Assembly: GCF_003334355.1 (NCBI RefSeq)
Contig: NZ_QOWP01000004.1
DNA length: 64,000 bases
Source of the DNA: Escherichia coli
Lineage (GTDB): Bacteria > Pseudomonadota > Gammaproteobacteria > Enterobacterales > Enterobacteriaceae
Reading direction: 5' to 3' (one strand)
The notes beneath the pieces are model-generated. The model did not search any database, had not been told where the DNA came from, and was given only the letters and a program-made list of their open reading frames with translations. The translations under genes were made by a program, and so were the position numbers. This document shows, piece after piece, positions 18,211-19,036 of the stretch; position 1 is the first letter of the stretch, and each line of letters starts with the position of its first letter.

Positions 18211-18242
18211 AAAAAAAGGCCCCTGTTGAAATTGCAGGGGCC
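18211..18242 (-). terminator. Rho-independent terminator of cutC / MicL
   Basis: Hairpin ggcccctg-ttgaaattg-caggggcc preceded on plus strand by A7 (T-run on minus strand). Confidence 0.75.
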
Positions 18243-18506
18243 TGGTACGAGCAAGCATCATATTGGGCGACATGATGCAACGGTAAAAATCATTTGGCCT
18301 GATGGCGTTCAATGATTCCTTTCATTTCAGCAACCGCCGCCCCGTCTACGACATAACGCGAATACTCGTCCGCGTGTGCATCTGATGACATAGACAATCC
18401 TTGATTACGATAACGCATCGGTGAGGCTTGCCACGCTCCCGCGGAGCTATGGACTTCCAGCACTCCGGCATCGAGGAAGTGGTGCAGGTTTTCTGCACGG
18501 ACTCCT
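18211..18506 (-). ncRNA. micL: MicL (RyeF) sigmaE-dependent sRNA transcribed from within the cutC 3' coding region
   Basis: Minus-strand GGAACTT (plus 18535-18541) followed 17 nt later by TCCAA resembles a sigmaE promoter; transcript would run about 295 nt to the cutC terminator, matching the known roughly 300-nt MicL; ends approximate. Confidence 0.5.
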
Positions 18507-19036
18507 GCTCCGGCCATAATGATTGGAGCATCACGATGGGCAATAAGTTCCATAATTTTTGATAAACCTTGCAGTGCGTCTGATTTTTGCCCTGATGTCA
18601 GCACCCGGGCAATGCCCAATTCCGCAAGATTATTGAGTGTATTTAGAGGGTTAGCGCACATATCAAAGGCGCGATGAAAAGTCACTGCCAGCGGACCGGC
18701 AGCAGCCATTATTTTTTCCATTCGTGGCATATCGACATTCCCGTCAACATCGAGAACGCCCGTCACCAGTCCAGGAAAACCTAATTCGCGGACCGTGCGC
18801 ACATCCTCAAGAATGGCGGCAAACTCACCGTCGCTGTAGCAAAAATCACCACCGCGTGGGCGAATTATCGGATGCACAGGGATCGTCACCCGCTGGCGCA
18901 CGGATTTCAGTACACCCAACGACGGCGTTAAGCCCCCCTCTTTTGGGGCTGCGCATAATTCAACTCTGTCTGCGCCGTTTTGCTGCGCCGTTAGTGCACA
19001 TTCCATGCTGTAACAGCAAATTTCCAGTAATGCCAT
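18290..19036 (-). CDS. cutC: Copper homeostasis protein CutC
   Basis: 248-aa [31 protein letters not shown]... Confidence 0.95.

Follow-up and report, generated by a model that had tools for sequence, protein, structure and literature searches.

The 3' third of the Escherichia coli cutC gene contains, on the minus strand, a sequence that resembles a sigma-E promoter, and the question that it raises is whether this sequence is used as a promoter within the coding region and, if so, for which RNA. We have examined this question in a stretch of 64,000 nt of E. coli DNA (assembly GCF_003334355.1, contig NZ_QOWP01000004.1), which is referred to here as the window. An earlier note on this DNA had proposed that GGAACTT and TCCAA form the promoter of MicL (RyeF), a small RNA that represses lpp. 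The heptamer, a 17-nt spacer and TCCAA are all present as proposed, and we conclude that the locus is micL, the gene for the third sigma-E-dependent small RNA of E. coli, with a probability of approximately 0.97. It should be noted that this is the re-identification of an element already described, in the literature since 2014 and also in Rfam and RefSeq, and that nothing about the element is new.

Computed here are the MicL family identity, the geometry of the promoter and the selection that acts on its nucleotides, the RNA folds, and the register in which the RNA pairs with lpp. What is said of sigma-E dependence, of the mapped 5' ends, of cleavage by RNase E and binding to Hfq, of the repression of lpp and of the copper phenotype is taken from published K-12 experiments. 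All of the expression data are from K-12, which is another strain than that of the window; we apply them here because the promoter and the processed form of the RNA, MicL-S, are base-for-base identical in the two. In the 471 nt around the finding there are five single-base differences from K-12 MG1655, at 18392, 18378 and 18352, and also at 18602 and 18202. The first three of these lie where the 5' part of MicL and cutC overlap, and two of the three alter CutC residues relative to K-12 (Ala/Glu and Val/Ile); none of the five is located in the promoter, MicL-S or its seed. The features of the host gene, the transcript and the promoter are as follows.

18290..19036, minus strand: cutC coding sequence, 248 codons (open reading frame list; K-12 RefSeq annotation aligned at 99% identity)
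18211..18518, minus strand: MicL primary transcript, 308 nt (Rfam RF02654)
18517..18518, minus strand: MicL transcription start, 18518 (U) according to Guo et al. and Rfam position 1, 18517 (A) according to RefSeq K-12
18545..18551, minus strand: -35 element GGAACTT, 7/7 match to the sigma-E consensus (PMC1312014)
18528..18544, minus strand: spacer of 17 nt, ATTGCCCATCGTGATGC, read from the sequence
18523..18527, minus strand: -10 element TCCAA, 4/5 match to the consensus TCAAA
18499..18583, minus strand: PmicL minimal promoter fragment of Guo et al. 2014, -65 to +20 relative to the start at 18518, from which its coordinates were placed

A search with the Rfam MicL model (RF02654) matched the window over model positions 1-308 of 308, with a score of 370.3 bits (threshold 56) and E = 9e-112, and the K-12 RefSeq ncRNA micL (b4717) is annotated at the position equivalent to window 18211..18517. 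[quoted passage not shown] In the open reading frame list, cutC is preceded by a yecM-like frame and followed by torY and torZ, and the K-12 RefSeq layout is the same. These observations agree with the description by Guo et al. [quoted passage not shown] The transcript length that had been proposed, about 295 nt, was too short: the RNA extends for 308 nt, from 18518 to 18211. The range that had been given for the element, 18211..18541, has its 3' end exactly right at 18211 and misses the -35 heptamer by 4-10 nt.

The 308-nt RNA folds with a minimum free energy of -118.9 kcal/mol (z = -3.9). Full-length MicL was found by Rfam in 11 of 11 divergent loci tested, with scores of 88-369 bits. By megablast, the segment 18100..18700 has a match at 90-100% identity in 5425 of 5426 complete E. 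coli genomes, always under an annotated cutC. A single complete genome of the 5426 is without a match to the cutC/micL region, and two of the matches are on plasmids. The PGAP annotations of most E. coli genomes show only cutC at this place, so that a micL annotation is worth keeping.

The promoter is embedded in cutC codons 162-172, where the reading frame is ATG GAA CTT ATT GCC CAT CGT GAT GCT CCA ATC. In addition to the -35 element and the -10-like element listed above, there is an A/T-rich stretch, TTTATCAAAAATTAT, that closely precedes the -35 element within the PmicL fragment; the -10 element sits 4-5 nt before the start site, and the distance from -35 to +1 is 26-27 nt. According to Rhodius et al. 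(PMC1312014), the spacer of sigma-E promoters measures 15-19 nt, with a preference for 16, and the -35 element is 25-28 nt from +1, most often 26 or 27. The element conforms to this description of sigma-E regulon promoters in each respect, with a spacer that is one nucleotide above the preferred 16. [quoted passage not shown] RefSeq differs from these sources by a single nucleotide, since K-12 micL b4717 is 307 nt long from A18517 and the RNA of Rfam and of Guo et al. is 308 nt long from U18518. A start at A18517 would suit the purine-start preference reported for sigma-E promoters, and the 1-nt ambiguity is immaterial.

In K-12, a GFP fusion to the -65 to +20 fragment had sigma-E-dependent activity slightly below that of micA and rybB (Guo et al. 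2014, PMC4102768). The sigma-E dependence of MicL transcription is published for K-12 from this fusion, from Northern blots and from a promoter mutant, and the identical promoter sequence would be expected to confer it here. One detail of the promoter mutant appears to be at odds with the reading frame. Guo et al. (PMC4102768) describe the PmicL mutant as '-10C-T/-35A-G', with the CutC protein sequence kept. In the frame gcT CCA ATc (18521-18527), none of the possible C-to-T changes within TCCAA is synonymous, and the sole synonymous C-to-T near the -10 element is ATC to ATT at 18521, a position that is naturally variable (C15/A6/T1 in the 22 loci).

To obtain related loci, we scanned one genome per species for a pattern of 22 bases within the 3' end of MicL-S. 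As over 260 nt separate this pattern from the promoter, the choice of loci was independent of the promoter. It yielded 22 loci from about 9 enterobacterial genera, including Citrobacter, several Escherichia species, Salmonella diarizonae, Enterobacter, a Klebsiella MAG, Raoultella, Lelliottia, Huaxiibacter and Pseudenterobacter. The alignment consists of 22 sequences, the window and 21 of these loci; L015 was left out for having too little upstream sequence. Over cutC, the aligned loci are 69-92% identical to the window.

We considered whether GGAACTT and TCCAA might be a chance motif, with the small RNA produced only by RNase E processing of the yecM-cutC mRNA in the manner of CpxQ. Taken by itself the motif is weak evidence and is not significant: the pattern GGAACTT-N14-18-TCNAA has 1 match in the 64-kb window, where 0.17 would be expected by chance, and at least one match occurred in 15 of 100 shuffles. 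Also, MicL-S is a processed RNA and could in principle come from the cutC mRNA. Yet none of the 22 aligned sequences, which represent about 9 genera, departs from GGAACT or TCCAAT, synonymous sites included, and the two are always 17 nt apart, whereas the spacer between them varies from species to species, amino acids included. It is this invariance at synonymous sites in related loci, together with the position of the motif relative to the Rfam MicL 5' end, that raises the promoter call above chance and upholds the interpretation proposed in the earlier note. The second part of the alternative fares no better. Guo et al. [quoted passage not shown] An origin by processing alone has been refuted for K-12 by this mutant, and we consider this explanation to be very improbable for the window.

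The motifs are located inside an open reading frame, in which they encode ME(L) and (A)P(I), and their conservation might be imposed by the CutC protein or by codon usage rather than by a promoter. The distribution of variation contradicts this. The promoter codons encode the least conserved stretch of CutC, with an amino-acid entropy of 0.86, the highest in the protein, against 0.45 elsewhere, and they nevertheless have the lowest third-position entropy, 0.61 as compared with 1.21 for codons 1-155 (Mann-Whitney p = 3e-4). Individual bases behave in the same way. G18551 is fixed though codon 162 changes from ATG to TTG or ACG (Met to Leu or Thr), T18527 is fixed though codon 170 changes among Ala, Thr and Val, and the synonymous site at 18548 (GAA) is invariant in 22 of 22 sequences. 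The third-codon positions 18527 (GCT) and 18524 (CCA), which in the window belong to four-fold-degenerate Ala and Pro codons, never vary. Invariant degenerate third-codon positions number 13 among 236 in cutC, and 7 of the 13 fall in codons 156-171, the part of the gene that spans the promoter (hypergeometric p = 1.2e-6); those at 18569, 18560 and 18557 correspond to the upstream part of the PmicL fragment. Since synonymous sites are fixed where the encoded protein varies most, selection acts on the promoter DNA and not on the CutC protein, and a protein or codon-usage constraint is a highly improbable explanation. The locus is a clear example of an intragenic promoter kept by synonymous-site selection.

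With the promoter reading retained, the 3' end of the micL transcript contains the following features.

18211..18290, minus strand: MicL-S, the 80-nt processed form (Guo et al. 2014), identical in sequence to that of K-12
18255..18278, minus strand: MicL-S stem-loop 1 (nt 13-36), with a 9-bp stem and a 6-nt loop, from the fold
18242..18253, minus strand: seed UGCUCGUACCAG, MicL-S nt 38-49, which pairs with lpp coding nt +16..+28
18211..18243, minus strand: intrinsic terminator common to cutC and MicL, with the 9-bp stem AGGCCCCUG/CAGGGGCCU, a loop of 9 nt and seven T

MicL-S folds into two stem-loops joined by a single-stranded linker (-28.8 kcal/mol, z = -5.15). The strong terminator that the earlier note had assigned to both cutC and MicL is present 79 nt beyond the TGA stop of cutC, as a G+C-rich hairpin with a run of seven T behind it; in the fold the first T is paired, leaving six. 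A simple terminator scan with a loop limit of 8 nt did not report this terminator, which has a 9-nt loop, and direct folding shows the hairpin. The 9-bp G+C-rich stem followed by seven U has the form of an Hfq-binding 3' module, and both MicL forms have been found to bind Hfq by co-immunoprecipitation (Guo et al. 2014, PMC4102768), with which RIL-seq data are in agreement. In the clinical isolate E. coli 2023CK-01509 (locus L025, at about 2000-2900), an IS1A element is located between the MicL terminator and torY. We had considered a disruption of MicL by IS1 in the top E. coli match, and ruled it out because the insertion is downstream of the terminator.

[quoted passage not shown] 2014, PMC4102768). 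[quoted passage not shown] 2014. Processing to MicL-S is likewise predicted for the window, where both stem-loops are formed in the fold and the sequence is identical to that of K-12. The MicL-S hairpins gave no covariation in RNAalifold, since they are invariant in the 22 loci, a sample chosen by a pattern inside MicL-S. In the same alignment the 5' part of MicL has only 3 compensatory pairs, with a covariation term of -1.12 kcal/mol.

Repression of lpp, which the earlier note had attributed to MicL, is published (PMC4102768), and our computed duplex reproduces the published seed register. The pairing was evaluated against K-12 lpp, as lpp lies outside the window. With RNAduplex, MicL-S nt 36-49 and lpp form two helices, of 7 bp and 5 bp, that are separated by a bulged U (-16.9 kcal/mol), and this register covers the bases that were altered in compensatory mutants, MicL-S +41-44 and lpp +21-25. 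The energy is unexceptional, since 2 of 84 translation-initiation regions in the window score as well. A duplex computed for full-length MicL-S against lpp -40..+102 (-46 kcal/mol, with 89 of 1000 shuffles as good) was discarded, as it ignores intramolecular structure. Because the energy alone is unremarkable, the proof of the pairing lies in published genetics and RIL-seq: the compensatory mutations verified it (Guo et al., PMC4102768), and the lpp-MicL pair was found again in RIL-seq chimeras. By mRNA-seq and ribosome profiling, lpp was the sole target seen, and both MicL forms repress it (Guo et al., PMC4102768).

Three of the related loci differ from the window near MicL-S. Those of Enterobacter sp. 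10-1 (L008, 2212-2578), the Klebsiella MAG (L010, 5701-6021) and Raoultella terrigena (L023, 11304-11669) have 13-59 nt of extra sequence just 5' of MicL-S, with which MicL would be 321-367 nt long. The seed of these loci has C for U at MicL-S +41 (GCCCGUACC); its pairing with lpp G25 would then be G-C instead of G-U, if lpp is unchanged there.

The combined observations suggest the following sequence of events. Upon envelope stress or entry into stationary phase, sigma-E RNA polymerase would bind the promoter in cutC codons 162-172 and transcribe 308 nt from 18518 to the terminator at 18211, a stretch that comprises the final 76 codons of cutC and the 3' UTR. Processing would then release the 80-nt, Hfq-bound MicL-S. 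The seed, predicted to be single-stranded between the two hairpins (18253..18242), would pair with codons 6-10 of the lpp mRNA and block initiation of translation, leading to decay of the mRNA. [quoted passage not shown]

The suggestion in the earlier note that some cutC phenotypes may be caused by the small RNA coincides with the main conclusion of Guo et al. (2014, PMC4102768), who showed that the copper sensitivity formerly attributed to cutC is explained by the loss of MicL. In their work, the PmicL point mutant that nearly abolishes MicL and MicL-S reproduces the copper sensitivity of the delta-cutC strain. Two historical copper-sensitive alleles can be placed in the window, the first of them as follows.

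18585, minus strand: cutC copper-sensitive allele A146G/K49R in the old numbering, at A18585 in codon 151 (AAA)

The published position of this allele, -67, is reproduced exactly (18585 = 18518+67). The other allele, R66H in the old numbering, corresponds to G18534 in codon 168 (CGT), within the promoter spacer. A single offset of 306 nt places both alleles, and the start of the old reading frame is the ATG at 18730. In this strain, the consequences of a cutC knockout, transposon insertion or SNP at about 18585-18211 should be interpreted as possibly due to micL and lpp, and not to CutC.

The 5' 228 nt of MicL, corresponding to cutC codons 173-248, might have a function beyond that of a passive leader, in that the long form might be a partly masked pro-sRNA from which RNase E releases the active RNA. 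In the RNAalifold consensus, the invariant 5' end (nt 2-6, AUGGC) pairs with nt 39-44 of MicL-S, which belong to the lpp seed, and the Rfam consensus structure closes the long form by pairing the 5' end with a stretch just upstream of the terminator hairpin. Third-position entropy is also modestly lower across the MicL-cutC overlap (1.03 vs 1.21, p = 0.009). The paired bases never vary and hence provide no covariation, and the 5' bases encode a conserved MAGAG motif of CutC. Against masking of the seed are the published findings that both MicL forms repress lpp (PMC4102768) and that cleavage proceeds without the first 222 nt (Updegrove et al.). A functional role for the long form is unlikely, and the modelled pro-sRNA in particular is improbable.

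Compared with K-12 MicL (RyeF; RF02654; b4717; Guo et al. 2014 Genes Dev 28:1620), every feature tested is the same, namely position, strand, length of 308 nt, sigma-E promoter, cleavage-site sequence, the two 3' stem-loops, the lpp seed and the terminator; the differences are the three single bases in the cutC-overlapping 5' part (18392, 18378 and 18352). The other two sigma-E-dependent, Hfq-binding small RNAs of enterobacteria, MicA and RybB, have promoters similar in strength to that of MicL. Like MicL, they are induced both upon envelope stress and in stationary phase, and use base pairing to repress abundant proteins of the outer membrane. MicA and RybB are encoded in intergenic regions. 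They are primary transcripts with many targets, whereas MicL starts in a coding sequence, is processed and has lpp as its single reported target.

DapZ (in dapB) and MicX (Vibrio) resemble MicL in having a promoter in the upstream reading frame, in sharing the terminator of the mRNA and in being independent of host-gene transcription. The promoter of DapZ immediately precedes the stop codon, and the DapZ transcript is not processed further; in contrast, MicL starts 226 nt upstream of the stop codon and is trimmed to 80 nt. CpxQ and other small RNAs from 3' UTRs are similar to MicL in that RNase E cuts near the stop codon, at a site positioned by stem-loops, to yield an Hfq-bound 3' fragment. 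However, small RNAs of the CpxQ type are without a promoter of their own and follow the level of the parent mRNA, whereas MicL has its own sigma-E promoter.

Several other RNAs were noted in the window. At 14233-14275 on the plus strand, Rfam ES036 (CssrF) matched with 45.5 bits (threshold 37.6), just past the 3' end of torZ and on the opposite strand from it; the Escherichia whittamii locus (L012, 3381-3423) has a match to ES036 as well. C0465 RNA has a full-length Rfam match of 111.6 bits at 32510-32587 on the plus strand. On the minus strand, the Rfam match to naRNA4 (CssrE, nucleoid-associated ncRNA) at 3847-3922 is barely above threshold (61.1 vs 59.5 bits), and three clustered tRNA genes are located at 50814-51113, which, from their position relative to K-12, are probably glyW-cysT-leuZ.
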